In this document: positions 2,157-19,128 of the stretch, in pieces
Numbering within the stretch: the stretch's first letter is position 1
Layout of the letters: each line of letters starts with the position of its first letter
NCBI GenBank assembly: GCA_035297145.1
Contig: DATGZN010000030.1
Coordinates: 6,881-70,880 of the forward strand
Origin: Bryobacteraceae bacterium
GTDB taxonomy: Bacteria > Acidobacteriota > Terriglobia > Bryobacterales > Bryobacteraceae
Length of the DNA: 64,000 nt
Reading direction: 5' to 3'
Notes under the pieces: generated by a model
What the model was told of the DNA's origin: nothing
Database searches by the model: none
Seen by the model: the letters and a program-made list of their open reading frames with translations, nothing else
Program-made: the position numbers and the translations under genes

Positions 2157-2193
2157 TTGACAATCGTCTCATAAACTGCCATAATCGTCTCAT
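2157..2193 (+). promoter_or_regulatory. Near-consensus sigma70-type promoter (TTGACA-17 nt-CATAAT) with an 11-nt direct repeat. It implies a leaderless or near-leaderless start for the AAA+ gene.
   Basis: TTGACA at 2157-2162, 17-nt spacer, CATAAT at 2180-2185, ATG at 2192. AATCGTCTCAT occurs at 2162-2172 and again at 2183-2193. Confidence 0.45.
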
Positions 2194-3349
2194 GAACAAG
2201 GACACTAGCTTCATGAGCGAGCTATTTCGTATCGTTAACGGTGCGCTTCGTCTCGACATAGACAAAGTCCGTAACTATACAGCGTTCCTCGCCGATAAAC
2301 TTGAAAAGGCAGGAGATGTAGCTTCTGCCGGACGCCTGCGCAAAATGCTCGAAGAGAGTGATCAGCAACTGCGGCCGGCCGGGGCGGCGTTTGCCAAAGT
2401 TCTGCCTGTCGATGCAGATAGCCGTTTCCCGCTCATAGAGCGGGTGAATCTAAAAACACTTTCCGAGCCTCCGGTTATGCTCGGCCAGGAGCAATGGGAC
2501 ACCGTCAACGAATTTCTGAGCATCGCGAAGAGCTATGCCCAGGCCGAAGTGAATGGCCTCACCACGTCGCTTAGCTTCTTGATGTACGGCCCGCCGGGAA
2601 CGGGGAAAAGCCGCCTCGCGCGGTACATCGCCCAGGAGCTGGGCCTTGACTTGTACGTCGCACGCCTCGATGGGTTGATCTCCTCATTCCTCGGAAGCAC
2701 GTCGAAAAACATTCGCGCTCTTTTTGACTTTGCGGCCAAGACTCCGTGTGTCCTGTTTCTCGATGAGTTCGATGCGATCGCGAAGCTGCGCGGCGACAGC
2801 CAGGAGCTGGGGGAACTGAAGCGCGTGGTGAACAGCTTCATCCAGAACCTGGATACGCTGGGCACTCAATCCATCGTGATCGCCGCGACGAACCACCAGG
2901 AACTGCTCGACTCGGCAATATGGAGGCGCTTCAGCTACCGGCTGGCGCTGGATTTTCCTACGGCGGATTTGCGCCGGAAGATGTGGGCTGCATTCATTGA
3001 GGAGTTGCAGTTCACGGCGCGGGAAATAGAGCTGCTGGTCGATCTGTCGGAAGGTTTCACCGGGTCAGACATTCACGAAGTCTGCGTGCGTCTCCACCGC
3101 CGCCGGATTACGAGGAAGGAGTTCCCCGAGCTGAAGGACGCCTTCCAGGTTCTCCAGAACATGGGCATCGGCGAAGGCGAAGACCGTCGCTTCTTATCGC
3201 TTCTGAGGGGTAAGGATGAGCATGCTGTCGCAACCAGGCTCCGTGACAGAAACGCCAAGCTATACAGTCACGCCGCTCTCGCCGATCTGTTGGGCGTTTC
3301 AAAAGCGACTGCTCATCGATGGGCGAAGGGAGTAAATACCGATGGCTGA
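2192..3349 (+). CDS. Classic-clade AAA+ ATPase with a C-terminal helix-turn-helix (IetA-like partner of the downstream subtilase).
   Basis: Walker A GPPGTGKS, Walker B VLFLDEFD, sensor-1 VIAATN, RRF arginine-finger region. C-terminal LADLLGVSKATAHRWAKG is HTH-like. 8-nt overlap with the next gene. Confidence 0.85.
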   Translation: MNKDTSFMSELFRIVNGALRLDIDKVRNYTAFLADKLEKAGDVASAGRLRKMLEESDQQLRPAGAAFAKVLPVDADSRFPLIERVNLKTLSEPPVMLGQEQWDTVNEFLSIAKSYAQAEVNGLTTSLSFLMYGPPGTGKSRLARYIAQELGLDLYVARLDGLISSFLGSTSKNIRALFDFAAKTPCVLFLDEFDAIAKLRGDSQELGELKRVVNSFIQNLDTLGTQSIVIAATNHQELLDSAIWRRFSYRLALDFPTADLRRKMWAAFIEELQFTAREIELLVDLSEGFTGSDIHEVCVRLHRRRITRKEFPELKDAFQVLQNMGIGEGEDRRFLSLLRGKDEHAVATRLRDRNAKLYSHAALADLLGVSKATAHRWAKGVNTDG

Positions 3350-5687
3350 TACACCGAGACCACCCCGGCAGGAACGCCTGCTGATAAAGGTCATCATGCC
3401 CAAACAAGGCACCGAGCGTAAGGTTGCGGGCGGCGGAGCGCCGCCTAAGCCGTTCCGGCCGGTTGACGCGAAGTACCGGGCGCGTCTTTCCAGCCAGGTT
3501 TCGGCTATACGCACCGCCATCGTTCCGCAGATCCGGACGGCCGGCGCCGCGCCCGTGCGGGTGAAGCTGCTCTCGAAGGCGGCGGCCAAAAGCCATCGGC
3601 CGGAGCATTTGTTCTCGCCTGAATCCTGCCCGATCGTGGGCGGCGGAAGCCTCGGGGAATTGTTCGTCAAGGCGACGCCGGAAGGATTGGACCGCCTCGC
3701 CGCGATGATCGAGAGCCGCGAGTCCGATCAGATGACGAAGGAGCTTTCTTGCGTTGAAACGATCGAGCCTGTGACGCCCGCCTATCGTCGCAGCGGTCTC
3801 GATGCCAAGGACCTGCTTCGCCGGAGCCCCCGCGGCAAACACGGTTTCATCACGCGGGTGGGTCTTTTCAACTTCGGCGCGGACCGCGACCAGCCCAAGT
3901 TGGTCGAAGATTTTGAAAGCACGTGCCGGAAGCGCGACATCAGGGTGCGCAGCAACCGGGGATATTCGCCGTCGAGCTTCACGTACGAAATCGAGTGCCG
4001 GAACGTCGACGATGTTGAGGCCCTGTCCCGCGTGATCGGCGTGCGTTCGATAACGCCCATGCCGCTCATTCGGACCATCCGTCCTCGGATGTTCGCGGCG
4101 AAGCCGTTGCCGCCTCTTCCGAGCGCCGATGACGTGACAGGAGACTTCCCCGTAGTGGTCGTTGTGGACAGCGGGATTTCCGACCAGATTCCCGGCCTGG
4201 AGAGCTGGGTCGTGGGGCGCGACTCTCAAGTCGCGCCGGAATACAGGAACACCGATCACGGTTCCTTCGTGGCGGGCCTCATCTGCTGGGGCGGCCAGCT
4301 TAATCCCACCATCGCCGGGCTCGACAACGGCCCGTGCGGAGTGTTCGATCTTCAGGTGATCCCGAATGAAGATCCCGCGAAAGGGGATACGCTCCCCTTG
4401 CTGGAATCAGAGTTTCTCGTCTCGCTGGACGAGGCGCTTCAGCAGCACGCCAATAGGTATAAGGTTTGGAATCTCTCGCTCGGCACGGACACTGTTTGCT
4501 CGCTCGACCAGTTTTCCAAGCTTGCCGAAGAACTCGACAATCTGCAGGAGCGATACCAGGTTTCCTTCGTCATCAGCGCCGGGAACTATGACACGCCGCC
4601 GCTCCTGGACTTCCCGCGCACGGGCGGCCAGGTGCAGGCCGGAAGGATCACCACGCCTGCCGACAGCGTCCTCGGGATCACTGTTGGCTCGGTGTCGCAC
4701 GTCGATTACAAGAAGGACGGGCCAAAGGAGCATCACCCTTCGGCCTTCTCGCGGCACGGCGCCGGGCCGAACTATGTGATCAAGCCTGACCTCATTCATT
4801 ACGGCGGATCGTGCTCTACGGACCTATCGCACATTTCCGGAATTCGTTCGGTGAACGGGACCGGCTCCGCTGAGAATGTTGGGACGAGCTTCGCTACGCC
4901 ACTTGTCGCCCGGACCCTTGCGCAGATCTATCATCAGGTCACGCCGACACCGTCGCCGGTGCTTGCCAGAGCCCTGCTGACGCACCACGCGCGCGATCCG
5001 CGTACCGCTCTCCGGGTGCCTGACGGAGACGAGAATTTCTTCGGGTTTGGCTTGCCTGCCCCGGTGCCGTATTGCCTGGAATGCACCCCGCATACGTCGA
5101 CGCTTGTTTTCGACGACGTGCTCCGGCCAGGGTATTTTCTCGAATGGAATGATTTCCCTTATCCGCCCTCGCTGAGCCGTGACGGGAAATATTTCGGCGA
5201 GATATGGATGACGGTGGCCTTCGCGCCGGCACGCGGCGCGAGATGGGGGACGGAATACTGTGAAACCCACATCGATGCTCATTTTGGGGTCTACCGGACC
5301 CAGAAATCGCGTGAGACAGGGCTGGTCAAAGCGAAACCAATATTTGTCGGCCTGGTGCCCCCGGAGCACAAGAACGTGGGCGAGCTTTACGAGTCCTACC
5401 AGGTGGAAAAGCTGCGCAAGTGGGCTCCGGTCCGGACGTATTACGGCGATCTCGGTGAGAACGGTGAGCGCGGCGATCGCTGGCGCATGATGGTTCGCCT
5501 TCTCACGCGGCATGGGATCGAGGATGAAGAAGCTTTCAAGCCGCAGCCTTTCTCTTTGATCGTGACGATTTCCGACCCGGAGAAGAAGGCACGGGTCTAT
5601 GACGAGATGGCGCAGATCGTTCGCAACCGCTTCCAGTCGCAGAACCTCACGGTTCGCGCGGCGGCGCGCGTTCGAGCAAAGCAATGA
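3342..5687 (+). CDS. S8 (subtilisin-family) serine peptidase, IetS-like.
   Basis: Catalytic motifs VVVVDSGIS (Asp), DHGSFVAGLI (His), NLSLG (oxyanion Asn) and GTSFATPLVAR (Ser). GAAGGGAG SD upstream. Start overlaps the stop of the AAA+ gene (ATGGCTGA). Confidence 0.9.
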   Translation: MADTPRPPRQERLLIKVIMPKQGTERKVAGGGAPPKPFRPVDAKYRARLSSQVSAIRTAIVPQIRTAGAAPVRVKLLSKAAAKSHRPEHLFSPESCPIVGGGSLGELFVKATPEGLDRLAAMIESRESDQMTKELSCVETIEPVTPAYRRSGLDAKDLLRRSPRGKHGFITRVGLFNFGADRDQPKLVEDFESTCRKRDIRVRSNRGYSPSSFTYEIECRNVDDVEALSRVIGVRSITPMPLIRTIRPRMFAAKPLPPLPSADDVTGDFPVVVVVDSGISDQIPGLESWVVGRDSQVAPEYRNTDHGSFVAGLICWGGQLNPTIAGLDNGPCGVFDLQVIPNEDPAKGDTLPLLESEFLVSLDEALQQHANRYKVWNLSLGTDTVCSLDQFSKLAEELDNLQERYQVSFVISAGNYDTPPLLDFPRTGGQVQAGRITTPADSVLGITVGSVSHVDYKKDGPKEHHPSAFSRHGAGPNYVIKPDLIHYGGSCSTDLSHISGIRSVNGTGSAENVGTSFATPLVARTLAQIYHQVTPTPSPVLARALLTHHARDPRTALRVPDGDENFFGFGLPAPVPYCLECTPHTSTLVFDDVLRPGYFLEWNDFPYPPSLSRDGKYFGEIWMTVAFAPARGARWGTEYCETHIDAHFGVYRTQKSRETGLVKAKPIFVGLVPPEHKNVGELYESYQVEKLRKWAPVRTYYGDLGENGERGDRWRMMVRLLTRHGIEDEEAFKPQPFSLIVTISDPEKKARVYDEMAQIVRNRFQSQNLTVRAAARVRAKQ

Positions 5688-5726
5688 GCAGTGCAGTAAC
5701 TGAATACACGAGAAGGAGAATTCAAA

Positions 5727-6188
5727 ATGTCTGAACAAGAACACAAGCACGAGGTACGCATTCATATCGATCAGCACCCCTACGAATCGCCGAACCCGAC
5801 CACGGGCGCGGCGCTCTACGCGCTAGGCAACGTTCCAGCGGGCCTTGAACTTTACCGGGAAGTGAGCGGCGACAGGGAAGACAAGCCGATCGAGAACGGG
5901 CCGGAGGTCGTCCACCTGAAGGAGGACGAGCACTTCCACAGCGGCCCGCCCAAGACATACACGATTTACGTGAACGGCGAACAGAAAGTGGTAACCACCA
6001 AAACCGTCTCCTTCGCCGAGATCGCCAAGCTCGCGTATCCGATACCGCCGACGGGCGACAACATTCTGTATACGGTTTCCTACGAAGATGGTCCGCCTGC
6101 CAACCCGCAGGGCTCGATGAAGGAGGGCGAAACCGTCAAGGTCAAGAACGGGATGATCTTCAATGTCACAGCGACCGATAAGTCGTAG
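5727..6188 (+). CDS. Multiubiquitin-domain protein (two tandem beta-grasp/ubiquitin-like repeats).
   Basis: AAGGAG SD 7 nt upstream. Two internally similar halves (VRIHIDQHPY... and YTIYVNGEQK...). The C-terminal ...[16 protein letters not shown] matches my memory of the multiubiquitin (Multi_ubiq) family ending. Confidence 0.8.
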   Translation: MSEQEHKHEVRIHIDQHPYESPNPTTGAALYALGNVPAGLELYREVSGDREDKPIENGPEVVHLKEDEHFHSGPPKTYTIYVNGEQKVVTTKTVSFAEIAKLAYPIPPTGDNILYTVSYEDGPPANPQGSMKEGETVKVKNGMIFNVTATDKS

Positions 6189-7347
6189 CGCGGACCTGAA
6201 AAAACTGCGCGACGAAGGATATGACCTGGAAATCCGATCCGGCTGTTTGCTGGTGAAAGATGTGCCGTATGTGAACTCCCTCAAGGAGGTCAAACGCGGA
6301 ATCCTGGTCATGAAGCTGGTGCTCGCGGACGACGAGACGGCGCGTCCCGACGACCACGTGGCCTACTTTTCAGGCGATCATCCGTGCTTTGAGGACGGTA
6401 CCGAAATCGCGAAGATCAAGCACGGGAGCGGCGAGCGCTCGCTGGCTGAAGGCGTGGTGATACAGCATTCGTTTTCGGCAAAGCCCAAGCCGCACGATTC
6501 CTACCCGGATTACTATGCCAAGGTGACGTGGTACGTGAGTATCCTTTCCGGCCCCGCCTGGAGGATCGACAAGTCCACGGCGAAGACCTTCCCGTTCATC
6601 GAGCCGGAGAAGGATGACGACGAGCCGTTCAATTACACCGATACCGCTTCCAGCAGGGCCGAAATCGTCGCCGTTACTAATAAGATGGCGCTGAAGAAGA
6701 TCGCGATCGTGGGCATGGGTGGGACCGGGTCTTATGTGCTGGATCTCGTCGCGAAGACGCCCGTCCGGAAAATTCACATCTATGACGGGGACGCCTTCCT
6801 GCAGCACAATGCGTTCCGGTCGCCAGGCGCGCCTTCGGGCGATGACCTGCGGGCCAAGCAGTCCAAGGTGACGTACTTCAAAAACCTTTACGCCCGGATG
6901 CACAATGGCATCGTCGATCACGCCGTTTATATCGATGCCGGGAATGTGGAAGAACTACGCGGCATGGATTTCGTGTTTCTTTGTGTCGACAAGGGCAGCG
7001 TGAAAAAAGTGATCGTCGAAAAACTCGAAGAGTTTAACGTCCCGTTCAGCGACGTGGGCATGGGCATCCAGTTGAAGAACGGAGCCCTGGGCGGCATCGT
7101 GCGGGTTACTGCGAGCACGGAGAAGAAGCGCGACCACTTTCGCGGCAGGGTTTCCTTCGGGGACGCCGCGAGCGGAAACGAATACGATCGCAACATCCAG
7201 ATCGCCGACATGAACGCCCTGAATGCCGCTCTCGCCGTCATCAAGTGGAAGAAGCTCTTCGGCTTCTACCGCGATCTTAAATCCGAGCATCATAGCCAGT
7301 TCAGCATCGACACCAACCTGCTCCTCAACGAAGATAGGCCGCAATGA
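6163..7347 (+). CDS. ThiF/E1-like adenylyltransferase with a ~170-aa N-terminal extension (possibly a prokaryotic E2-like domain).
   Basis: Rossmann motif [19 protein letters not shown] followed by IYDGDAF. The N-terminal [28 protein letters not shown] is typical of E1s linked to multiubiquitin. 26-nt overlap with the Ubl gene. Confidence 0.8.
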
Positions 7348-7799
7348 AACAGGGAATCGTCCTCAAGCACGAATTTGTCGAGTTCATCCCTGGCGAACTC
7401 AAGGAGGGGACGATTTACATTTCGATCCGGTTTGGGACGGCATCGCACCTGTGTTGTTGCGGCTGCGGCAACAAGGTCGTCACGCCGCTGCGACCCACGG
7501 ACTGGAAGCTCATTTTTGACGGCAAGACCGTTTCGCTCGACCCCTCGATCGGGAACTGGAGTTTCGCGTGCCGGTCTCACTACTGGATAAGGAATAACAG
7601 GGTTCGATGGGCGGCTCAGTGGTCTCCGGAAGAGATCGCGGCCGGAAGAGCCCATGACCGGTTTGCGAAGGATAGATATTTCGACACCGCTGACACGGCG
7701 ACGGATGGTGCGCTGAAGAAAGCTCCAGTGACGGTGGAAACCGCCAAGGCGGGACCGCGTTGGTGGTTGAGGATAAAGAAGTGGTGGCAGCGCTCATGA
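7344..7799 (+). CDS. DUF6527-family protein (Cys-cluster small protein of Ubl-conjugation operons).
   Basis: ATGA overlap with the E1 stop. Cys cluster [15 protein letters not shown] and the GNW motif (SIGNWSF), which I recall as the hallmark of DUF6527. Confidence 0.7.
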
Positions 7800-7835
7800 T
7801 GAAGCTCCGAGGGCGACGCCTGGAACAAGAGAACA

Positions 7836-9005
7836 ATGATACCTAAGCCGATAGACCAAATCACCGAAGCAGACCTCAGCGACCTCGTAAGCGCTAGCGT
7901 TGCCGAACGAAAAACACTCGATTACAAACAACAACTGCCGGATACGAACGATGCCGGCAAGAGAGAACTGCTGGCAGACGTTTCATCTTTTGCGAACACG
8001 GCGGGCGGAGATCTCGTTTTCGGCATGACGGAGAGCGCCGGCGTGCCGACAGCCATACCTGGGGTCCAGATCGGAAACACCGACCAGGAGATTTTGCGGT
8101 TCGACAACATCATCCGGGATGGGCTGTCCCCCCGCATCCGCCACACAACGAGGGCGGTGCCTCTGACGAACGGCGGTTATGTCCTGATCATCCGATCGGA
8201 GCGGAGCTGGTACGGTCCTCACCGAGTAATTTTCAAAGGCGACAGCAGGTTTTACGGGCGCACCACCAACGGCAAATATGAGCTTGATGTAACCGACTTG
8301 CGCAATGCGTTTCTCTTCGCAAGCGCCGTGACCGAAAAGATTTCAGCTTTCAGGGCAGAACGGGTCATCGCGTTGGAAAACGGCCAGCCGCTCGCCCCGC
8401 TCGCGGAAGGTCCGAAACTCGTTATCCATTGCATGGCCCTCGAATCCTTCGGAGCCAGGCCGCAATATGACGTCCTGGCCCTTGACGGAATTCAGCCCAT
8501 GTATGCGACACGCCTGAGCGGTTGGGGAGCGCGCATAAACTTTGAAGGCCGGATTTTCATTGCGTCGGGCGAACCCTCTAGCGCGTATACGCAAATCTAC
8601 AGGAACGGAGTGATAGAAGCCGTTCGCGTCGGCGTCTTGAACAGCCCCCAAAGTCCAGGCGTCATACCCAGTCTTGCGTACGAGGAAGCCGTGGTAGGCT
8701 ATCTGCCGCAGTGTTTCCAGATCATGAGGCAATTGGGATGTAGTCCGCCGGTTCTGGTTGGGATCACATTGATCGGCGTACGGGGGCTGAAGTTGGCGGT
8801 TGACGTGATGGTTGAATTGTCGATGGGGGGCGCCAAGGCAATCGACCGAGACGTCCTTATGCTGCCTGAGATCGTTGTCGAAGATCTTTCCACTCCGGCC
8901 GCGCCGCTGCTGAAGCGGACCCTCGACCTGGTTTGGAACGCCTGCGGATTTCCCTCGTCGCCATATTTCGATGCCGCTGGAAAATGGATGGGGCGAACCC
9001 GCTGA
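7836..9005 (+). CDS. AlbA_2 (Schlafen-like) domain protein with an uncharacterised ~260-aa C-terminal region.
   Basis: N-terminal ERKTLDYKQQL...LLADVSSFANTAGGDLVFGM...YVLIIRSERSW...FYGRT follows the AlbA_2/'divergent AAA' pattern (E-x-K ... AFANT-GG-L-GV ... Y-R). Confidence 0.7.
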   Translation: MIPKPIDQITEADLSDLVSASVAERKTLDYKQQLPDTNDAGKRELLADVSSFANTAGGDLVFGMTESAGVPTAIPGVQIGNTDQEILRFDNIIRDGLSPRIRHTTRAVPLTNGGYVLIIRSERSWYGPHRVIFKGDSRFYGRTTNGKYELDVTDLRNAFLFASAVTEKISAFRAERVIALENGQPLAPLAEGPKLVIHCMALESFGARPQYDVLALDGIQPMYATRLSGWGARINFEGRIFIASGEPSSAYTQIYRNGVIEAVRVGVLNSPQSPGVIPSLAYEEAVVGYLPQCFQIMRQLGCSPPVLVGITLIGVRGLKLAVDVMVELSMGGAKAIDRDVLMLPEIVVEDLSTPAAPLLKRTLDLVWNACGFPSSPYFDAAGKWMGRTR

Positions 9006-9043
9006 AGCGGAAGATCTGGGTACGGCCGGGGTGTCACGAACCA

Positions 9044-9502
9044 ATGATTGTCGAGTTTAATTTGCATCCGACGCTCGGTGAGGGGGTCTACGCACACGTT
9101 TTCCAAATAGATGATAAGGCATACAAGCTGTTCTTGGCCTTCCCTTCTCATCACAGCGAGGAGAAGCGTAGATCAACTTTCCAGTCGCAATGTGCGGCGT
9201 ATCAGCGTGCCGGTTCTGACCCTGATCTAAAGGAACACGTTGCTACTTTCTACGGCACTTGCGTCATTGAGGACGTGATTGATAAAACAGGACAGAGCAT
9301 CAAGGGCAACTATATGCTGGACTGTTGCTATGTTCTCGAAGCGCTGAACGGCAGCAAAACGAAGGTTCTGGCAGTCCGTGATGCCTTCAGCTATGTGGGC
9401 GAAGCTTACGTCGCCTTCCATCAGAAGGGTTTCACTTTGGCGGACGCCGATATTTTCAATTTTGACGACCCGGAGCGGTTTAAGTTTGTTGACTTTCACT
9501 GA
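9044..9502 (+). CDS. Small (152 aa) protein with protein-kinase-like motifs, ending right after a DFG-like motif.
   Basis: LGEGVYAHVF (Gly-loop-like), AYKLF (beta3 Lys-like), LADADIFN (xxDxxxxN catalytic-loop-like), VDFH at the C-terminus. Start is uncertain: ATG at 9044 (after the upstream stop), 8984 or 8933. Confidence 0.4.
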   Translation: MIVEFNLHPTLGEGVYAHVFQIDDKAYKLFLAFPSHHSEEKRRSTFQSQCAAYQRAGSDPDLKEHVATFYGTCVIEDVIDKTGQSIKGNYMLDCCYVLEALNGSKTKVLAVRDAFSYVGEAYVAFHQKGFTLADADIFNFDDPERFKFVDFH

Positions 9503-9604: not shown

Positions 9605-10405
9605 TCATGGGTGCGCTCCTGGTGAAGGTTTCAAGCGATCGACGATCCTTAAAAGCTGGCTGGCGAATACGATCACCTCGGCGGCGTCTTCCGGATGCGT
9701 CGGGACGTGGCGGTGACTTTGTGGGTTCTTATAAAGACCGATCGCGCCCGCGAAGAGATTGGCCATCGCTTCCTGTTCGGCGGCCGGTAGCTGCGTATCC
9801 GTAAGCGGGCCGGGGGTTACCGCCTGGCCCTTCTTCTCGGCGGGCTTGAAGGCGTCGCGCATCAGCTCCGTGCCGTAGTCATTGGGTCCGAAGCTGCCTC
9901 CGGCGCGGACGGCGACTTCTACTTCCCGGAAGGCCTGGAAGACGGCCGTGTCGTATTCGCCGCGCATGAAAGCCGGATATACCTTGCTGGCGATGAGCGG
10001 GTGAAGCTGGGCTTTTGGCAACAGGCCCGCTTTGCGATAGGCCCCAAATTCATCGCGGGATGTGATCTGCTTGGCCCGCCGCGACACGAGGAACCAGCCC
10101 CCGGTCGAGCTTGGCTTTTCCACGAGTAAGCCCGCGCTCTGAAGCCATGCCCAGGCCTCCATGAGCGCCAGGTTCACGTCGGGTTGCCGGTTGCCGTACT
10201 CCGGCTGCTCTCGGGCGTTCGTGGGGGTCAGCGAATTAAAGAAATTGTGGCGGCTGATGCCGCCGTGCTGGTGGACGGTGTTCCCGGACACGCCCTCATA
10301 GCTGTTGAGGTGCAGGAGCAGGATGCCGGCGAGTTCTTCCACGGCGAGATCGAGGAGGTCTGCGGCATTCGGGACGAAAGACGATAAAGAGCGATACATG
10401 GTCAT
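9605..10405 (-). CDS. TIGR02391 (Hypoth_Ymh)-type protein, possibly HEPN-related.
   Basis: C-terminal half LHPLIASKVYPAFMRGEYDTAVFQAFREVEVAVR...LFAGAIGLYKNPQSHRHV...AAEVIVFASQLLRIVD fits the TIGR02391 pattern, with K where the usual RNP-x-x-H motif has R. ATG at 10405 overlaps the upstream stop (ATGA). Confidence 0.65.
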   Translation of the reverse strand: MTMYRSLSSFVPNAADLLDLAVEELAGILLLHLNSYEGVSGNTVHQHGGISRHNFFNSLTPTNAREQPEYGNRQPDVNLALMEAWAWLQSAGLLVEKPSSTGGWFLVSRRAKQITSRDEFGAYRKAGLLPKAQLHPLIASKVYPAFMRGEYDTAVFQAFREVEVAVRAGGSFGPNDYGTELMRDAFKPAEKKGQAVTPGPLTDTQLPAAEQEAMANLFAGAIGLYKNPQSHRHVPTHPEDAAEVIVFASQLLRIVDRLKPSPGAHP

Positions 10406-11106
10406 TGCACCGGGGGAACGCCGCGGACGATGACCAGGCGGCGGTTGTTGCGGGCGTCCCAGTCGAGCTCGATGCGGCTTAACGGCTCGGTGCATTGCTC
10501 GTCGCAGAACTGCGTGAAGTTAAACGTCACGTTGAAGGGATCGACGCTGACGACGGTGGCCATGCCCTCGCGATCAACGCCCGGCGCCCACTCCGGATAG
10601 TGGTTGCCGAGGCGCTTGTTGACGGTGCGGACGGTGACGTATTTGCCTTTGCACTTCAGCAGCTCTCCGGCCGGGCTGCAATGCGAGGTGAGGAGGTCAC
10701 GATAGAGACTGTCCGAGGCCTTCACGCTCCGGGAACCGGAGCGAATGTAGGCCGGGCCTGCAAAATGCGGCTTGTCCTTGCTATAGGAGATTTCGACGGC
10801 GACAACGCGCTTCCCGTCGAGATCCAGGACGCTCTTCCCCGGACGGATGGCCGGATAGCACTCTTCCCCGGCTTCGCCGACGCGCCTCTGCACTTTCTCG
10901 GGGTCATCGACTCCGAGGAGAGCGCCGGTCTTGTCGTCGACCCCGATGAACAGTACGGCCGTTTCCGTTTCTGGCAGGGAATTCGAAAAGGCGACCAGCG
11001 TCTGACGCAGCTCGTGGCCTTTGACGGATTGCGGCTTTCGTTCGACGAAATTATCTTCGGAGGGGCGTGTCGCCAGGCGAGCGGTGAGCCGTTGTTCGGT
11101 TGTCAT
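10402..11106 (-). CDS. AlbA_2 (Schlafen-like) domain protein, second copy.
   Basis: EDNFVERKPQS...LVAFSNSLPETETAVLFIGVDD...GKRVVAVEISYSKDKPHFAGPAYIRSGSRS matches the AlbA_2 pattern. The ATG at 11106 gives an ATGA overlap with the upstream stop (an alternative ATG lies at 11124). Confidence 0.7.
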   Translation of the reverse strand: MTTEQRLTARLATRPSEDNFVERKPQSVKGHELRQTLVAFSNSLPETETAVLFIGVDDKTGALLGVDDPEKVQRRVGEAGEECYPAIRPGKSVLDLDGKRVVAVEISYSKDKPHFAGPAYIRSGSRSVKASDSLYRDLLTSHCSPAGELLKCKGKYVTVRTVNKRLGNHYPEWAPGVDREGMATVVSVDPFNVTFNFTQFCDEQCTEPLSRIELDWDARNNRRLVIVRGVPPVQ

Positions 11107-12110
11107 GCGCTGGCCCTTTCCCACTGGTCATATTTCTGAACGAGAGGTTCCTTGGCGATGTCGAGGGGCTGTCCCCACAGCGCGCGACGCTGATCGTCCG
11201 GGAGCTTCCAGAAGGCCGCGATCGCGGCTTCCGTCCCGAAGTGGTTCCGGAGCGCGGCCTCGCGGAGCAACCGTGAATACGCGTCACGAGCGAGGTGCTC
11301 GATTTGCCTGGTCCTGTGCCAGCAAACGTCCTCCCGCTGGTCAGCGGGATAACTCTGCACGGCTTCGTCCCAGGGGTTCAGGTGCTCCGTGTCGCTGCGC
11401 ATGGCGAAGGCCTCCACCAACAGGTCGCGGGTGTCGTCGCCGGCGCGGGCGAAGGTCTGGCAGCGGTGTACGAATTGTTTTTCAGTCCGGCCGATGTCCG
11501 GGAGGATGAGGGCCTCCAGTGATCTGACGAATTGATGGAGACGGTCCTGGCCGGTCTCCTTCAGGCCGTTGAACAGCGTATTCATTCCTCGAATGACCCG
11601 CCTGAACTGGGTTTTGTCGGCGTCCATCGCTGCGACGCCCGCGCGTAGCGAGATGCCGTCTTCAAGCCAGGCCGTGTTGATGGGCGCACGCTTCCAGCCT
11701 TTGCTTTGGTGGAACGCGGGCATCTGGCTCATCTGCCGGATGCCGGGAACGCCGTTGACGGAAGATCCACACAACAGATCGGCGCCGTCGGCGACCTCGA
11801 TGCCGGCGCGGAGGTGCAGCATGTAGAACAGCAGGCTCAGGTCATTGTCCAGCCGGTGGTGCACAGCGTCGAGGATTTCGGGATTGTCCGATGGTTCTTC
11901 CACAAAGAGCACGAGATTGGCCCGGCCGAGGCGCTCCATGCGGATGGAACCGATCCACTCTTTCCAGATGCCGAGGTCGGGGACCGGCACGGCGGGCATC
12001 ACCCAGGTTCCATCGGAAAGCTGGAACGCGGCGCCGGGAAGGTCGGTGTAGACGTTATTGACTGTCAGCATGGCGAACTTGCTTTTAGTCTGGAACGAGT
12101 GGAGGCCCAT
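11103..12110 (-). CDS. Hypothetical 335-aa protein with an Rx4H (HEPN-like) motif in a helical C-terminal half.
   Basis: Long ORF with normal composition. FAMRSDTEHL contains R-x4-H. No other family recognised. Confidence 0.55.
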   Translation of the reverse strand: MGLHSFQTKSKFAMLTVNNVYTDLPGAAFQLSDGTWVMPAVPVPDLGIWKEWIGSIRMERLGRANLVLFVEEPSDNPEILDAVHHRLDNDLSLLFYMLHLRAGIEVADGADLLCGSSVNGVPGIRQMSQMPAFHQSKGWKRAPINTAWLEDGISLRAGVAAMDADKTQFRRVIRGMNTLFNGLKETGQDRLHQFVRSLEALILPDIGRTEKQFVHRCQTFARAGDDTRDLLVEAFAMRSDTEHLNPWDEAVQSYPADQREDVCWHRTRQIEHLARDAYSRLLREAALRNHFGTEAAIAAFWKLPDDQRRALWGQPLDIAKEPLVQKYDQWERASA

Positions 12111-12949: not shown

Positions 12950-13402
12950 CTACCGGCGCGCGGATCGCCCCCGCGTTGAGCCGGACCGGTTGGGAGCAGG
13001 CGACAGAGCTTCCAGAATGCGGCAATTGCCGATTAGACTTTTTCCCGGACACCGGCGCTGGATTCGGCGCAGCTCAGCCGCAAGCCCTCGCAGGTCGGCG
13101 ACTTTCCGCTCAATTTCCTTCAGGTGGTTCGCAGTAATTCGATCGACCTCGGAACACTTCTGCCTAGGTTGAGTGGACAGGCGCAGAAGATCGCGGACCT
13201 GGTCGAGCGTGAAGCCGAAGCTCCGGCATCGGTGAATGAACTGCAGCCGGTGCAAGTGTTCCTGCTTGTAGGCGCGGTAATTACCCTCCGTGCGCGGCGG
13301 CGGCGGCATGAGTTTGATTTGCTCGTAATACCGGATGGTCACGACCTTGACCCCAGCTTCTTTCGAGAGATGGCCGATGCTCATACGCCCGGCTAAATTC
13401 AT
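12950..13402 (-). CDS. MerR-family, heavy-metal-type transcriptional regulator.
   Basis: N-terminal HTH MSIGHLSKEAGVKVVTIRYYEQIKL and NYRAY. C-terminal Cys pair CPGKSLIGNC plus an upstream Cys (QKCSEV), as in CueR/ZntR/CadR-type sensors. Start at 13402 (MNLAG) or 13384 (MSIGH). Confidence 0.8.
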   Translation of the reverse strand: MNLAGRMSIGHLSKEAGVKVVTIRYYEQIKLMPPPPRTEGNYRAYKQEHLHRLQFIHRCRSFGFTLDQVRDLLRLSTQPRQKCSEVDRITANHLKEIERKVADLRGLAAELRRIQRRCPGKSLIGNCRILEALSPAPNRSGSTRGRSARR

Positions 13403-13406
13403 ACGC

Positions 13407-13437
13407 TTGACCCTATAGTTACTATAGGCCGCATTCT
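13407..13437 (+). promoter_or_regulatory. MerR-type promoter/operator: TTGACC, 19-nt spacer containing a perfect 7-3-7 dyad, weak -10.
   Basis: TTGACC at 13407-13412. CCTATAG-TTA-CTATAGG at 13412-13428. CATTCT at 13432-13437. The ATG of the downstream gene is at 13444. Confidence 0.6.
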
Positions 13438-13443
13438 GTAAAG

Positions 13444-13971
13444 ATGAACAGGACCAAATGCGCGTTGATCGCATCTTTGTTTCTTTGCCGTGGAAACGCC
13501 TTCGCGCAGTCGGTCGACGTCGACAAGGAGCCGGAGCCTGTCGCAATCGTGGAGCTTGGGGGAGCTGGTAGCTGGAACCTCAAAGGCGGATCGAGCTTCG
13601 GCGCGGACCTAGCGGCTGAAGTTACGCCGATAGAGAACTGGCTGGAACTCGAAGCGGGCGTCACGCCGCTTTTCACCCGTCACTTGACAGAATGGGATAC
13701 CGACCTTCTGTTTAAGAAGCCTTGGACCCTCTCGAAAAAAGCGGAGTTCATGATCGGCATTGGCCCGGAGTGGATTCATACGCGGCAATACGGCGTGACA
13801 ACGAACTCGATCGCCGCTGAGGCCGTGCTGGATTTTATGTACTGGCCCTCCGGGAAGCATAGGTTCGGCTGGTTTATCGAACCGGGCTACGAGTACAACT
13901 TTGGGCGAGGGCATGAGCGATCAATTGGCATAAGCGGCGGCCTGCTGATCGCGATCCGACGAGGCCCATAG
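13444..13971 (+). CDS. Secreted small beta-rich protein (possibly outer-membrane), the likely MerR-controlled cargo.
   Basis: Signal-peptide-like N-terminus MNRTKCALIASLFLCRGNAFAQS. Alternating hydrophobic/aromatic pattern with Gly-rich turns. Confidence 0.55.
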   Translation: MNRTKCALIASLFLCRGNAFAQSVDVDKEPEPVAIVELGGAGSWNLKGGSSFGADLAAEVTPIENWLELEAGVTPLFTRHLTEWDTDLLFKKPWTLSKKAEFMIGIGPEWIHTRQYGVTTNSIAAEAVLDFMYWPSGKHRFGWFIEPGYEYNFGRGHERSIGISGGLLIAIRRGP

Positions 13972-14126: not shown

Positions 14127-15071
14127 TCAGGCCGGCGCGCTCTCAGGTTTCGCCTGCAGGCCGTGCAGATAGTCTGCGGCCCGCTGTGCATGAGCCGCCG
14201 CGCTGAAAATCGCGCGCTTGTCTTCGCGCAGCACGTTGAGCCAGTGGCCGACGTAATCGGCGTGGTCCGCGCGGATATCAGGCGTGATGCCGAGGTCGGC
14301 GCAAAGGAAGGCGGCGCCAAGTTCCGCGACCAGCTCTTCGCGGCTGTACCCGGTATCGCCGAAGCGTTTCGCGCCGAAATCCCGGTTCAGCCGGCTTGGA
14401 TGTTTGGTGTAATGCGTGAGCTCATGCAGCGCCGTAGCGTAATAGCTTTCCTTGTCCTTGAACGCCTCGAACGGCGGCATCTGGATCATGTCTCTTGCCG
14501 GTGCGTAGAACGCCATGTTCCCGCCGTGCTGGATCGTCGCGCCGGTGGCGGCCAGGAAGCGGTCCGCCTCATCGATGCGCTCGGATGCTGGTAGCGGATT
14601 TTCCGGCCGTGCGTAATAGTGCTGCGGCAGGCCTTCGATCTGCTCGCAGTTGAAGACCGTGTAACCCTTCATGAACGGGATGTCACGCTCGACGTCGTCG
14701 CCGTTCTCGTCGCGCTCGGTGCGCGTCACGGTATTGGCGAAGACCACGAGGGAACCGTGCTCGCCCTTGCGGACGTGGGCGTCGAGCTCAAGCGCCTGCT
14801 TGAATGTCATCCAGATCGGCGTGGTGTAGCCCTTGGCCATGGCCTCGCCCCAGAGAAGCAGGATATTGATGCCGCGGTACGGCGTGCTGTTGTGGCGCAG
14901 CGGCCTGGTGATCTTGCCGGCCGCGTGTTCGGCGGGGCAGGGTTTCATCCACGGGCGGATGCCATTTTCGAGATCGGCGATGATGCGGTCGGTTACGCGG
15001 GAGTAAACGTCCTTGGTCAGCCGCTGTTCGCTGTCTTGCGTCTTCGATTGTTCTTTCGTCAGTGTTGCCAT
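14127..15071 (-). CDS. ardC: ArdC-like anti-restriction protein (N-terminal ssDNA-binding domain plus zincin metalloprotease domain).
   Basis: N-terminal VTDRIIADLENGIRPWMKP...PYRGINILLLW...TFKQA pattern. C-terminal HExxH (ALHELTHY) followed by EELVAELGAAFL. Confidence 0.85.
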   Translation of the reverse strand: MATLTKEQSKTQDSEQRLTKDVYSRVTDRIIADLENGIRPWMKPCPAEHAAGKITRPLRHNSTPYRGINILLLWGEAMAKGYTTPIWMTFKQALELDAHVRKGEHGSLVVFANTVTRTERDENGDDVERDIPFMKGYTVFNCEQIEGLPQHYYARPENPLPASERIDEADRFLAATGATIQHGGNMAFYAPARDMIQMPPFEAFKDKESYYATALHELTHYTKHPSRLNRDFGAKRFGDTGYSREELVAELGAAFLCADLGITPDIRADHADYVGHWLNVLREDKRAIFSAAAHAQRAADYLHGLQAKPESAPA

Positions 15072-15536: not shown

Positions 15537-17318
15537 ATGCGGCTTTCGCGACTGCAGATTGCCAATTTCCGAAACTTCCAGAGCATCGACATCGCTCTGA
15601 GCGAACATGCGATCTTCGTGGGCGAGAACAAAGTCGGGAAGTCGAACCTGATTTACGCGATTCGGCTGGTCCTCGATCCGTCGTTGCCGGATTCCCTTCG
15701 TCAACTCCGCATCGAGGACTTCTGGGACGGTGTTCCGCGCCCGTTGTCGAAGGATGACCGAATTGAGATTTCCATCGATATCGCTGACTTCGAGGACGAC
15801 CCGAAGCAGCTTGCGGTGCTCTGCGAGCATTTGGTGGCGCACGAGCCGATGGTCTCGCGCCTTACCTACGCGTTCGGTCCATTCAGAGCCGAGGGCGAGG
15901 AAGCGCCGAAGGACGCCGATTATGAGTGGGTGATTTACGGCGGTGATCGGATCGAGAACATCGTGGCAGGCGATGTGCGGCGACGGCTCCCCTTAGAGTT
16001 TCTGGCAGCGCTGCGCGATGCCGAGGCGGACCTCGGGAACTGGCGGCGGTCTCCGCTTCGCCCCCTGCTGGACCGGGCGGCGGCACAAATCGATCCTAAG
16101 ACGCTCGGAGGGATCGCCGCGTCGGTCACGGAGGTAACGAAGTCGGTTACGGAGACCGATGCGATCAGCGCGCTGTCGCAACAGATCAAAGATCGGCTGG
16201 AGGAGATTGGCGGGCCGTCGCAGGGGTTGGATACGTCGCTGGGATTTTCTCCGGCGGATGCCGACCGCCTGCTGCGGGCGCTGCGTATCTTCATCGACGA
16301 GGGTAAACGCGGGATCAGCGAGGCAAGCCTCGGTTCGGCCAACATCATCTATCTGGCGCTGAAGCTCCTGGAGATTGAGCAGCTCGTTGACGAGGGCGCG
16401 CGCGATCATACGTTTCTCGCAATTGAAGAACCGGAGGCGCATCTGCATCCATACCTTCAGCGGCTCGTGTATCGGGATGTGTTGCGGCGCCGAGCCCACC
16501 AAGAGGGAGAAGAAGCGGAAGGCGCGAACGAGCGCAGGACCATTCTGGTGACCACGCACTCCCCGCACATCGTGAGCGTCTCGCCGCTGGAATCTCTCGT
16601 TGCGCTGCGCAAGGTTGACGGCGCAACAGAGGCCGCGTCGGCTGCGGAATTGGAGTTCGAGGAAGCAGATCGGGCTGATATTGAGCGGTATCTGGATGTA
16701 TCGCGAGGCGAAATGCTGTTCGCCAAGGGCGTTTTACTGGTTGAGGGCGATGCGGAAGCGTATTTGGTGCCGGCTCTCGCCCGGTTGATGGACAAAGATC
16801 TCGACCAACTGGGGATTGTGGTCTGCTCGATTTCAGGGACTCATTTCGGGCCGTATGTGAAGCTGCTGAAAGGCCTGAACATTCCCTCTGCTGTGCTCAC
16901 AGATCGCGATCCGAGCGACCAGGGAGACCGTGGCGTCGCGAGAGTGCTCCAGCTTCTGCAGGATACTGTGCCCGCCAAAATCCTGGCGAAGTACCCGACC
17001 GAAGAGAAGCAGCTCGACCTGGCGCTTAAGCGGGGACTCTTCTTGAACGATCATTGTCTTGAGGTAGACCTGTTCAAGGCGGGTCGGCATAAGAGCATGT
17101 GCGGCGTAATCGCTGAATTGACGGAGAATGGCGCTGCGAAGAAGCGAGCCGGGGAATGGTCTACAAAGCCAGCGAATATGGATGCCGCCCAACTCGTAAA
17201 AGACATTACCGCGATCGGCAAGGGGCGCTTTGCTCAACGGCTCGCCAGCATCATCACAAAGGACATCTGTCCGAAGTACATCGGGAGCGCGATTACGTAT
17301 GTTGCGGAGCGGTGCTAG
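15537..17318 (+). CDS. gajA: OLD-family ATP-dependent nuclease (GajA-like; ABC-ATPase plus TOPRIM).
   Basis: LQIANFRNF...FVGENKVGKSNL (Walker A), FLAIEEPEAHLHP (Walker B/D-loop region), LLVEGDAEAYLVP (TOPRIM). GAAGGGGA SD. Confidence 0.8.
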   Translation: MRLSRLQIANFRNFQSIDIALSEHAIFVGENKVGKSNLIYAIRLVLDPSLPDSLRQLRIEDFWDGVPRPLSKDDRIEISIDIADFEDDPKQLAVLCEHLVAHEPMVSRLTYAFGPFRAEGEEAPKDADYEWVIYGGDRIENIVAGDVRRRLPLEFLAALRDAEADLGNWRRSPLRPLLDRAAAQIDPKTLGGIAASVTEVTKSVTETDAISALSQQIKDRLEEIGGPSQGLDTSLGFSPADADRLLRALRIFIDEGKRGISEASLGSANIIYLALKLLEIEQLVDEGARDHTFLAIEEPEAHLHPYLQRLVYRDVLRRRAHQEGEEAEGANERRTILVTTHSPHIVSVSPLESLVALRKVDGATEAASAAELEFEEADRADIERYLDVSRGEMLFAKGVLLVEGDAEAYLVPALARLMDKDLDQLGIVVCSISGTHFGPYVKLLKGLNIPSAVLTDRDPSDQGDRGVARVLQLLQDTVPAKILAKYPTEEKQLDLALKRGLFLNDHCLEVDLFKAGRHKSMCGVIAELTENGAAKKRAGEWSTKPANMDAAQLVKDITAIGKGRFAQRLASIITKDICPKYIGSAITYVAERC

Positions 17319-19128
17319 GTTTTCGCTGCTCTACCGGGCCGCGGCCGAGGATCTTCGGGACAACCCCGGACAGTGGCAGGCATACGAATCGACCGGCAAC
17401 TGTGTGGTGCTGGCCGGCCCTGGCAGCGGCAAGACGAAGACCCTCACAATCAAACTGGCGCGGATGATGGCGGAGGATGTCGAGCCTCCTCGCGGCATCG
17501 CCTGCATCACCTACAACTCCGAGTGTGCGGCGGAGCTCGGGCGCCGCCTGGACAAACTCGGAATTCAAGAATCCTCGCATGTATTCATCGGCACGATACA
17601 CAGCTTCTGCCTTAAGCATGTGGTGGTTCCGTACGGCAGGCTGGCAGGGCTCGAAATGCCCACCGATGTGAAGGTGGCGACGCCGGATGAACAGGAGCGC
17701 GTTTTCGCAGAAGCCGTAGCAGAGCTATACGGGCCGAACCGGGACCCGACCTATCTGCGCACCGACTTCGACCGGTATCGCCGGACGCATCTGGACCGGG
17801 ATCAACCGGAGTGGCTGGGGGATGATGCGGAAACGGCGCAGCTAATCGAAATCTACGAACGGAAATTGCGGGAGCGCGGGGCAATTGATTTCGACGACAT
17901 GATGTTACTCGGTCTTCGGCTGATCGAGGGAAACCAGTGGGTCCGGTCGTGTTTGCAGGCACGGTTTCCGATCATTGCCGTGGATGAATATCAGGATCTG
18001 GGACTCGCACTGCACAGGATGGTAGTAAGTCTCGTATACGACGCCGGCATCCGCCTGTTCGCGGTGGGCGACGCCGACCAATCGATTTACGGTTTCGCGG
18101 GAGCGATGCCGCACCTGCTTCAGGAACTGTCGGAAATGGAGGGCATGGAGACGGTTCCCCTGCGCTTCAACTACCGCTCTGGTCTGGAAATTGTTGAGGC
18201 GTCGGAAGCGGCTCTGGGCGAGGAGCGCGGATACGAGGCCAAGGCCGGGTACGCCGGCACGATCCACTTTTACAAACTCCCGAAGGGGCTGGAAGAGCAA
18301 GCCGAGCAGATTGCGAAGGTGCTGATCCCTGGCGCACTGGGGCGCCGCAAAGGCCGGACGCTGGGCGACATCGCGGTGCTCTACGTTGACAAGAACGATG
18401 GAGACGTCATTGAAGGGCAGGTGAGTGCGGCGGGGATGCAGTTTATCCGGGTCGATCGAGGCGCACCTTATCGTAAAACGAAGTTCACGCGATGGCTCGA
18501 AGAGTGCGCCGCATGGTGCGCCGGAGGCTGGCGGAGTGGCACGCCGCGTTTGTCCTCGCTGTTGTCGCGCTGGCAGCTGTTCAATCCCTCCATACGGTCG
18601 GAGAAAGAGCGGAGCCAACTGAAGGTGGATCTCGTGCAATTCTTGTTCGGTCACCGGGACGAGAAACTCTCGCTTAGGGATTGGCTCGGAGCGATGGTCG
18701 ATCAGTGTATAGCCCGCGCTTTTGCGGCAGATCCGACGCAGCGGGATGAGGCGGAGGCCCTCGAAGTGTTGCGGCGGGCGTGCGGCCCGAAGGGCAAACT
18801 GGCTAAGCTGACCGTGGGCGCATTCGGAGGCCAGGCGGGCGCGTCTGACCATGTAAACCTGATCACGCTCCACAGCGCCAAGGGCATGGAGTTTGACATT
18901 GTTCTGATGATGGGCCTCGAACAGGGTCGCATCCCGAAGTGGGATGCCAAGACCGCCGAGAAGAAGGGCGAAGCGCGGCGGCTGTTCTATGTGGGTCTGA
19001 CGAGGGCCAGGCACGAAGTGCACTTGCTGTGCTCGGGATTTACGCTGAACCGGAAAGGCCGGCGCTTTGATAACGGCGCCTCCGAATTCATGAGAGAAGT
19101 CTACCGCAAGGTCAAGAAACAGTCTTGA
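17299..19128 (+). CDS. gajB: UvrD/PcrA-type superfamily-1 helicase (GajB-like).
   Basis: VLAGPGSGKTKT (Walker A), AVDEYQD (motif II), TLHSAKGMEFD and LFYVGLTRAR (motifs V/VI). The ATG at 17299 overlaps the nuclease gene by 20 nt. Confidence 0.8.
   Translation: MLRSGARFSLLYRAAAEDLRDNPGQWQAYESTGNCVVLAGPGSGKTKTLTIKLARMMAEDVEPPRGIACITYNSECAAELGRRLDKLGIQESSHVFIGTIHSFCLKHVVVPYGRLAGLEMPTDVKVATPDEQERVFAEAVAELYGPNRDPTYLRTDFDRYRRTHLDRDQPEWLGDDAETAQLIEIYERKLRERGAIDFDDMMLLGLRLIEGNQWVRSCLQARFPIIAVDEYQDLGLALHRMVVSLVYDAGIRLFAVGDADQSIYGFAGAMPHLLQELSEMEGMETVPLRFNYRSGLEIVEASEAALGEERGYEAKAGYAGTIHFYKLPKGLEEQAEQIAKVLIPGALGRRKGRTLGDIAVLYVDKNDGDVIEGQVSAAGMQFIRVDRGAPYRKTKFTRWLEECAAWCAGGWRSGTPRLSSLLSRWQLFNPSIRSEKERSQLKVDLVQFLFGHRDEKLSLRDWLGAMVDQCIARAFAADPTQRDEAEALEVLRRACGPKGKLAKLTVGAFGGQAGASDHVNLITLHSAKGMEFDIVLMMGLEQGRIPKWDAKTAEKKGEARRLFYVGLTRARHEVHLLCSGFTLNRKGRRFDNGASEFMREVYRKVKKQS

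Follow-up and report, generated by a model that had tools for sequence, protein, structure and literature searches.

A 64,000-nucleotide stretch of the metagenome-assembled genome (MAG) of a Bryobacteraceae bacterium (Acidobacteriota; assembly GCA_035297145.1, contig DATGZN010000030.1, positions 6,881 to 70,880 of the forward strand; hereafter the window) carries at positions 5727-7799 three genes for ubiquitin-like conjugation that constitute, with a probability of about 90%, an intact and ordinary Type II Bub operon (bubA, bubBD, bubE); it belongs to a published family and is not a new kind of system. Bub (bacterial ubiquitination-like) operons, formerly known as 6E or DUF6527 operons, are the subject of two preprints from the Corbett laboratory (bioRxiv 10.1101/2024.11.21.623953, hereafter the Bub preprint, and its companion). 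The Type II operon, formerly 6E.2, is described there as encoding a ubiquitin-like protein (BubA), an E2-E1 fusion protein (BubBD) and, as BubE, a DUF6527 protein (Ye, Gong, Chambers and Corbett; bioRxiv 10.1101/2024.11.21.623953). The corresponding features of the window are as follows.

5713-5718, forward strand: Shine-Dalgarno-like AAGGAG, 8 nt before the bubA ATG, in the 39-nt gap that follows the stop codon of the upstream gene ietS (5687)
5727-6188, forward strand: bubA, open reading frame (ORF) of 153 amino acids, ubiquitin-like protein of the Ubl2 type (two predicted beta-grasp domains)
6163-7347, forward strand: bubBD, ORF of 394 amino acids, E2-E1 fusion protein
7344-7799, forward strand: bubE, ORF of 151 amino acids, DUF6527 protein

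Identification of the operon

All three proteins were matched by Pfam families (Multi_ubiq for BubA, DUF6791 and ThiF for BubBD, DUF6527 for BubE), against which the ORFs are full length. The operon was assigned to Type II because its gene order (ubiquitin-like protein, E2-E1 fusion, DUF6527 protein, with no JAB) equals the published Type II architecture; no JAB/JAMM peptidase was found with Pfam or PADLOC among the neighbours scanned, from position 25 to position 19128 of the window. The residues named in the text of the Bub preprint for BubBD and BubE are all present in the window proteins. PADLOC v2 has no models for BubA or BubE.

An earlier note, made from the letters of this DNA, had described a ubiquitin-like conjugation module of three coupled genes, with a 26-nt overlap followed by an ATGA overlap and with no JAB peptidase. 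Direct reading of the sequence confirmed both overlaps (bubBD and bubE share the ATGA at 7344-7347, an overlap of 4 nt), the Pfam families and the neighbour scan agree with the module, and the profile searches that the note had proposed placed each protein in the expected family. The oxyester chemistry that it mentioned is the published mechanism of the Type II Bub family, as given in the text of the preprint (bioRxiv 10.1101/2024.11.21.623953). No later Bub papers came up in a literature search on oxyester chemistry.

For comparison, 75 genomic loci with relatives of BubBD (37-89% identity) were fetched and the three proteins were extracted from them; residue conservation was counted over 64 distinct sequences. 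The same three-gene arrangement is found in about 65 further loci or genomes from many bacterial phyla and from archaea, among them Xanthomonas hortorum, a species in the preprint's Type II list, and an alignment with the window BubBD revealed invariant residues common to the BubBD proteins of a Klebsiella plasmid, of Xanthomonas hortorum and of one archaeon.

The ubiquitin-like protein BubA

The Multi_ubiq family matches the second half of BubA only (residues 78-151, E 1e-24), and residues 76-153 match the last domain of the Type II BubA of E. coli ZDHYS365 (PDB 9cd2, E 2e-13), with which the window protein shares its TDKS end. When a profile was built from the N-terminal half, it found the middle beta-grasp domain of multi-ubiquitin proteins of known structure (9d59, E 2e-4; 9cd2, E 4e-3; 8u38, E 0.01). 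Because both halves thus match domains of solved multi-ubiquitin structures, the description of BubA as a tandem beta-grasp protein holds on grounds of homology, and BubA may be annotated as a ubiquitin-like protein with two beta-grasp domains. The internal similarity of the two halves, which the earlier note had also perceived, was not significant (BLASTP E 3; hhalign probability 1%). The two-beta-grasp (Ubl2) architecture already appears in the list of the companion preprint; the BubA of Type II operons is a Multi_ubiq protein with 1-3 such domains.

The C-terminus of BubA reads NVTATDKS without a Gly-Gly, as previously noticed, and what had been taken for an oddity proves to be the norm of the family: the last residue is serine in 72 of 72 BubA relatives, with the consensus T-[D/N]-[K/R]-S.

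6183-6185, forward strand: codon for Ser153, the last residue of BubA and the presumed site of adenylation and conjugation

Among the relatives, the terminal serine is encoded by all four TCN codons, and the overlapping BubBD codon varies between arginine, histidine, leucine and proline. The constraint therefore lies on the end of BubA: the serine is kept whichever TCN codon encodes it and the BubBD codon in the overlap is variable, a pattern that shows purifying selection on the terminal serine throughout the Type II family. No mention of this invariant serine was found in the main text of the Bub preprint. The conjugation assay of the E. coli system used BubA and BubBD alone (bioRxiv 10.1101/2024.11.21.623953), and therefore the unprocessed serine end is presumably the substrate; by analogy with E. 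coli BubA, which is active in vitro without processing, Ser153 is presumably the residue that is adenylated. The invariant serine would then define the substrate end of Type II BubA for recognition by the E1.

The overlap of bubA and bubBD

The start codon of bubBD (ATG at 6163) lies inside bubA, which ends with a TAG at 6186-6188; the last codons of bubA read TTC AAT GTC ACA GCG ACC GAT AAG TCG TAG.

6163-6188, forward strand: dual-coding overlap of 26 nt between the 3′ end of bubA and the 5′ end of bubBD, sequence AATGTCACAGCGACCGATAAGTCGTAG

The overlap is exactly 26 nt long in 62 of 63 related loci, with the ATG at the same position in 61 of the 63, and the NCBI Prokaryotic Genome Annotation Pipeline (PGAP) gives an identical 26-nt overlap for the Klebsiella plasmid locus. 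Since the length of the overlap has been kept from Proteobacteria to Thaumarchaeota, its fixed size points to a conserved and probably obligatory coupling of translation. No mention of the overlap was found in the text of the Bub preprint.

Two further observations concern the same nucleotides. The ATG of bubBD falls in Asn/Asp-Val codons of BubA, an arrangement also kept from Proteobacteria to Thaumarchaeota, and the DNA of the overlap is strongly conserved among the related loci, with the consensus AATGTCACAGCAACTGATAAGTCGTAG.

The E2-E1 fusion protein BubBD

BubBD is 100% identical to an MAG protein named "ThiF family adenylyltransferase [Bryobacteraceae bacterium]" at NCBI; 29 contigs encode the identical protein, and the number of homologues at E<=1e-10 is at least 7981. 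Two domains are annotated.

6190-6645, forward strand: E2-like domain (DUF6791), with the putative active site H65 (6355-6357), S105 (6475-6477) and K107 (6481-6483)
6679-7344, forward strand: E1 adenylation domain, with the GMGGTG loop (6712-6729), R219 (6817-6819) and the crossover-loop residue Y341 (7183-7185)

The adenylation domain is matched by ThiF (residues 173-295, E 7e-10), and the Rossmann motif previously noticed is indeed there, GMGGTG being residues 184-189 of BubBD. The glycines of this loop, R219 and Y341 are each present in 64 of 64 relatives, in which the crossover loop has the tyrosine and no conserved cysteine. In a Foldseek search, the model of the full-length protein matched TcdA, the BubCD of Citrobacter (9eav and 9ea4; E 5e-7), UBA5, MccB and Cap2; in a sequence search of the PDB, BubBD matched UBA5 and the Citrobacter BubCD. 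According to the text of the Bub preprint (bioRxiv 10.1101/2024.11.21.623953), Bub pathways proceed through oxyesters on the crossover-loop tyrosine of the E1 and on a serine of the E2, and the substitutions R219A, Y342F and S106A in BubBD of E. coli each abolish BubA conjugates.

The ThiF match also raises the question of whether BubBD is an E1 for a sulfur carrier or a cofactor (as in the ThiF/MoeB-ThiS/MoaD systems) or for peptide tailoring (as MccB, PaaA or TcdA), acting with a small beta-grasp protein and without conjugation. TcdA, MccB and PaaA are among its best structural neighbours and the NCBI name points in the same direction, but the carrier has no C-terminal Gly-Gly (it ends T-D-K-S), no thiamine, molybdopterin, microcin or other biosynthetic genes were found among the scanned neighbours, the adenylation domain is fused to a DUF6791 domain whose nucleophile site is invariant, a dedicated peptidase gene follows, and covalent conjugates of BubA arise with the orthologue from E. 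coli (bioRxiv 10.1101/2024.11.21.623953). A carrier system of this sort is therefore considered highly improbable.

The N-terminal domain is matched by DUF6791 (residues 10-161, E 9e-53). H65 is kept in 64 of 64 relatives, while position 105 is serine in 60 and cysteine in four, and position 107 is lysine in 57, arginine in four and cysteine in three; S105 and K107 sit in a motif F-S105-x-K107-P. When residues 1-170 were modelled with AlphaFold2 (AF2) from a more diverse alignment than that of the full-length protein, the mean predicted local distance difference test (pLDDT) was 82 and the predicted template modelling (pTM) score was 0.74. The order of elements in this model (a helix, four strands, a hairpin bearing S105, and a long helix) fits a ubiquitin-conjugating (UBC) core minus its last two helices, which is how the preprint text describes BubB.

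Several observations weigh against the identification of the operon. A Foldseek search with the N-domain model recovered no UBC fold at E<=0.001; the best matches (Atg10, Cdc34 and Atg3) were weak, with E 0.17-0.25 and template modelling (TM) scores of at most 0.35. A DUF6791 profile built from the 64 sequences matched no E2 among the PDB sequences, nor the BubB of Citrobacter. The AF2 model of full-length BubBD is poor (mean pLDDT 56, and below 40 in the region of Y341), its C-terminal third being unusable because the alignment was shallow (77-100% identity). Cys75 (6385-6387), in a motif G-x-x-P-C, is kept in 59 of 64 relatives. Finally, none of the frequent Bub-adjacent regulators (CapW, CapH with CapP, CapK with CapS) adjoins the window operon, and, according to a 2026 paper in EMBO J (PMC13373217), protection against phage has not been shown for Bub operons.

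E2 and UEV proteins make up about one third of the top 50 weak Foldseek matches to the N-domain, an enrichment that is no proof of the fold. Because the structure search gave no significant match, the E2 assignment is supported by family membership and by the published S106A result. Of the earlier proposal that the roughly 170 N-terminal residues are an E2-like domain, the domain itself has stood, as DUF6791 is in this family the E2 half of the fusion, and the UBC fold has found no significant structural match. Cys75 stands out in a family described as having no catalytic cysteine; its role may be structural or that of an additional nucleophile.

Weak matches to the PADLOC "E1-E2" (Cap2) models, in the adenylation region of BubBD (about residues 147-316; best E 1e-10, residues 167-277), and the presence of Cap2 among its Foldseek matches would be compatible with a cysteine-dependent thioester system, either Bil or the Type II cyclic-oligonucleotide-based anti-phage signalling system (CBASS) with Cap2 and Cap3. 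Such systems are contradicted by the surroundings, in which no JAB/JAMM peptidase, CD-NTase or separate E2 was found within about 8 kb, and by the protein, in which the E2 nucleophile position is a serine and the crossover loop has a tyrosine and no conserved cysteine; a thioester system in the window is thus extremely improbable.

A cysteine in place of the E2 serine was observed in the BubBD proteins of four Sphingomonas loci (motif L-C-S/H-R/K-P), and no bubE gene was found in any of the four. Downstream of the operon in one of these loci lie long ORFs with a resemblance, judged by eye, to TnsA and TnsB of Tn7. The Sphingomonas variant may be a thioester-using form that has no peptidase.

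The DUF6527 protein BubE

BubE is matched by DUF6527 at residues 32-90 (E 3e-26). The cysteine cluster and the GNW motif to which the earlier note drew attention were located at residues 37-41 (CCCGC) and 70-72, respectively, the latter two residues past the putative catalytic Ser68. The functions of the following residues are taken from mutants of Citrobacter BubE.

7452-7466 and 7569-7571, forward strand: putative zinc ligands C37, C39 and C41 (first interval) and C76 (second interval)
7545-7547 and 7578-7580, forward strand: putative Ser-His dyad, S68 and H79, respectively
7752-7796, forward strand: Trp-rich amphipathic tail, a terminal hydrophobic extension

The text of the Bub preprint (bioRxiv 10.1101/2024.11.21.623953) presents BubE as a zinc-dependent Ser-His protease that removes conjugates; the corresponding residues of the Citrobacter protein are C57, C59, C61 and C99, S92 and H102, zinc is required, and the S92A and H102A proteins lose peptidase activity. 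C37, C39, C41, C76 and S68 are each present in all 64 relatives of the window BubE, and H79 in all but one (63 of 64). By analogy, the DUF6527 protein of the window is the predicted peptidase of the pathway itself, a point missed in the earlier note; since the DUF6527 protein is a peptidase, the absence of JAB does not equal the absence of a deconjugating enzyme. A comparison of BubE with PDB sequences gave matches at chance level only, consistent with the statement in the preprint text that the BubE fold has no close structural homologue. Tails of the W..K[LI]KKWW type, similar to that of the window BubE, are present in relatives.

Predicted mechanism

A mechanism may be predicted from the homologous systems of E. 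coli and Citrobacter, which have been characterised. The overlaps of 26 nt and 4 nt would couple the translation of bubA, bubBD and bubE. BubA would need no processing protease, because its reactive end is exposed from synthesis onwards: BubBD would adenylate Ser153 at its free C-terminal carboxylate, with the help of R219 and of the Gly-rich ATP loop formed by residues 184-189, and BubA would then move as an oxyester onto Tyr341 in the flexible crossover loop. From there it would pass to Ser105 of the E2-like domain, probably that of the opposite protomer, assisted by H65 and K107, and would end on an amino group of a target protein. The conjugation would be reversed by BubE, predicted to fold as a small beta-sandwich that carries the C4 zinc site and the Ser68-His79 dyad; its Trp-rich tail may be a membrane-binding element.

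The window operon adds nothing to the mechanism of Bub operons, which among the bacterial relatives of the ubiquitin machinery have diverged the most and have oxygen esters in place of thioesters. The comparative leads that it offers are the terminal serine of BubA, the fixed overlap and the linkage to ietAS.

Distribution and genomic setting

Relatives of BubBD were found on 130 plasmids and in none of 50,697 phage records, so that, as far as this collection goes, Bub is not carried by phages. Complete Type II operons also occur in seven archaeal MAG loci, from Thaumarchaeota/Nitrosopumilus and Bathyarchaeota; archaeal BubBD is 43-53% identical to that of the window, and the family is described as bacterial in the text of the papers.

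The neighbouring genes identified with PADLOC and Pfam are listed below.

25-1983: C-terminal part of HmaC (DUF499 ATPase of the Hma system), PADLOC match to positions 287-940 of the 941-position model
2192-3349, forward strand: ietA (PADLOC IetA, E 9e-124; Pfam AAA)
3342-5687, forward strand: ietS (PADLOC IetS, E 0; Pfam Peptidase_S8)
7836-9005, forward strand: Schlafen/AlbA_2 protein 1, which starts 37 nt after the bubE stop
9605-10495, reverse strand: Hypoth_Ymh, between the two Schlafen/AlbA_2 genes
10402-11124, reverse strand: Schlafen/AlbA_2 protein 2
12950-13546, reverse strand: MerR regulator
14127-15071, reverse strand: ArdC anti-restriction protein, with ArdcN and zincin-like metallopeptidase domains
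15537-17318: GajA of a Gabija system
17230-19128: GajB of the same system, a UvrD-type helicase

The region is a mobile-element defence island (Hma, Iet, Bub, Schlafen-like, ArdC and Gabija), regarded as such because ArdC adjoins the Gabija pair, and the defence-island setting that had been proposed for the operon is borne out by these genes. The hmaC ORF is either cut by the start of the window or a truncated gene. Neither of the two Schlafen/AlbA_2 genes adjoins Bub in the related loci. In about half of the related loci, a divergent gene for a HEIAH metallopeptidase is present, in some cases with a helix-turn-helix (HTH) gene; these are CapP/CapH-like by sequence motif only, and the window has neither.

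The incomplete hmaC frame indicates that the island may hold damaged or cut genes, and the usual Bub regulators are absent beside the operon, as might be expected if the bub genes were a decayed, non-functional remnant on a mobile element. This is very unlikely: the ORFs are full length against the Pfam models with all conserved residues intact, the identical BubBD is recorded on 29 contigs, and the codon use in the overlap reflects purifying selection across the family.

The earlier note held the biological role of the operon to be open. Its place in a defence island makes a function in anti-phage defence or in the stress response likely.

Adjacency of ietAS and bub

The bub operon lies on the same strand as ietS, and no terminator-like or sigma-70-like site was found in the 39-nt gap between ietS and bubA. 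A scan of positions 5300-9300 yielded no sigma-70-like promoters at all, in a manner of scanning that may not suit Acidobacteria. Bub has an Iet pair beside it in the window and in five related loci, six genomic cases in all (in one of the five the Iet proteins are very divergent), and on the BubBD tree at least seven changes between the linked and the unlinked state are seen. When metagenomes were scanned reciprocally, with IetS, 60 loci were informative (a close IetS relative with enough downstream sequence); a Type II Bub operon lies directly downstream of ietS, at a distance of 37-360 nt, in 22 of them, and every other downstream family occurs in at most three. No literature on Iet paired with Bub was found.

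These observations raise the possibility that ietAS, which pairs an antitoxin-like ATPase with a toxin-like subtilase, and Bub are a co-transcribed composite system whose parts act together, for instance with Bub tagging controlling the IetS protease or the reverse. The short same-strand gap without a terminator-like site, the Iet pairs beside Bub in the five other loci, the frequency of Bub downstream of ietS in the metagenome loci and the repeated changes of linkage would all fit. However, Iet is absent from the closest Bub relatives, four loci at 80-89% identity. The stretch of DNA homologous to the closest relatives begins at about 5689-5745 and ends at about 7624-7787; because homology stops at the cassette borders, the mobile unit consists of the three bub genes only. 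Moreover, 38 of the 60 IetS loci have no Bub, Iet and Bub each exist and work alone elsewhere, and defence genes cluster in islands anyway. Nor are the counts independent, since IetS served to select the metagenome loci and these are close relatives of one another. A composite system is accordingly regarded as doubtful, and it is unlikely that ietAS and Type II Bub form one functional five-gene unit in this lineage, with the cassettes repeatedly joined and separated. The adjacency may reflect functional coupling, or only island dynamics and the selection of loci. If such a unit were real, it would be the first handle on the purpose of Bub, for example the tagging or releasing of a protease-based abortive-infection effector, and the recurrent adjacency of ietAS suggests a partner system with which to seek a Bub phenotype.

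Comparison with known systems

The ordinary Type II Bub operon to which the window genes are assigned resembles Type II CBASS in that a single polypeptide carries both E2 and E1, the E1 being homodimeric and noncanonical (Atg7/UBA5-like). Cap2, in contrast, conjugates a CD-NTase and not a ubiquitin-like protein, does so through cysteine, and is paired with the JAB protein Cap3; no CD-NTase is near the window operon. The Bil systems (BilA-D) share with it a ubiquitin-like protein of multiple beta-grasp domains, conjugation of the E1/E2 type and a defence-island setting, but their cysteine thioesters, separate E2 (BilB) and JAB (BilC) are missing in the window, and unlike BilD, an E1 with the tandem adenylation domains IAD-AAD-CYS, BubBD has a single adenylation domain with a crossover-loop tyrosine.

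Type I Bub (6E.1), represented by BubAB, BubCD and BubE of Citrobacter sp. RHBSTW-00271 (PDB 9ea4, 9ea5, 9ea8, 9eae and 9eav), is closer. It shares the Multi_ubiq protein, the DUF6527 peptidase and the oxyester chemistry (crossover-loop tyrosine and E2 serine), and its E1 is a structural neighbour of the window BubBD (Foldseek E 5e-7). Its genes are fused differently: Type I has a fusion of the ubiquitin-like protein with E2 and a fusion of JAB with E1, and cleavage by JAB exposes a C-terminal glycine, whereas the window has an E2-E1 fusion without JAB, the partner at the N-terminus of its E1 is DUF6791 instead of JAB, and its ubiquitin-like protein is encoded by a separate gene and has an unprocessed serine end. 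The partners of the E2 serine are lysine and histidine in the window and histidine and aspartate in Type I.

The Type II Bub operon of E. coli ZDHYS365 has the same genes in the same order as the window, and both are without JAB. Its BubA has three beta-grasp domains compared with two in the window BubA, and the window operon differs in its host, an MAG of Bryobacteraceae (Acidobacteriota), and in its setting, with ietAS directly upstream and without adjacent CapW, CapH/CapP or CapK/CapS. The last beta-grasp domain and the TDKS end of BubA are shared, the active-site residues S106, R219 and Y342 of the E. coli BubBD correspond to S105, R219 and Y341 of the window protein, and the C4 zinc site and Ser-His dyad of Type II recur in the window BubE.

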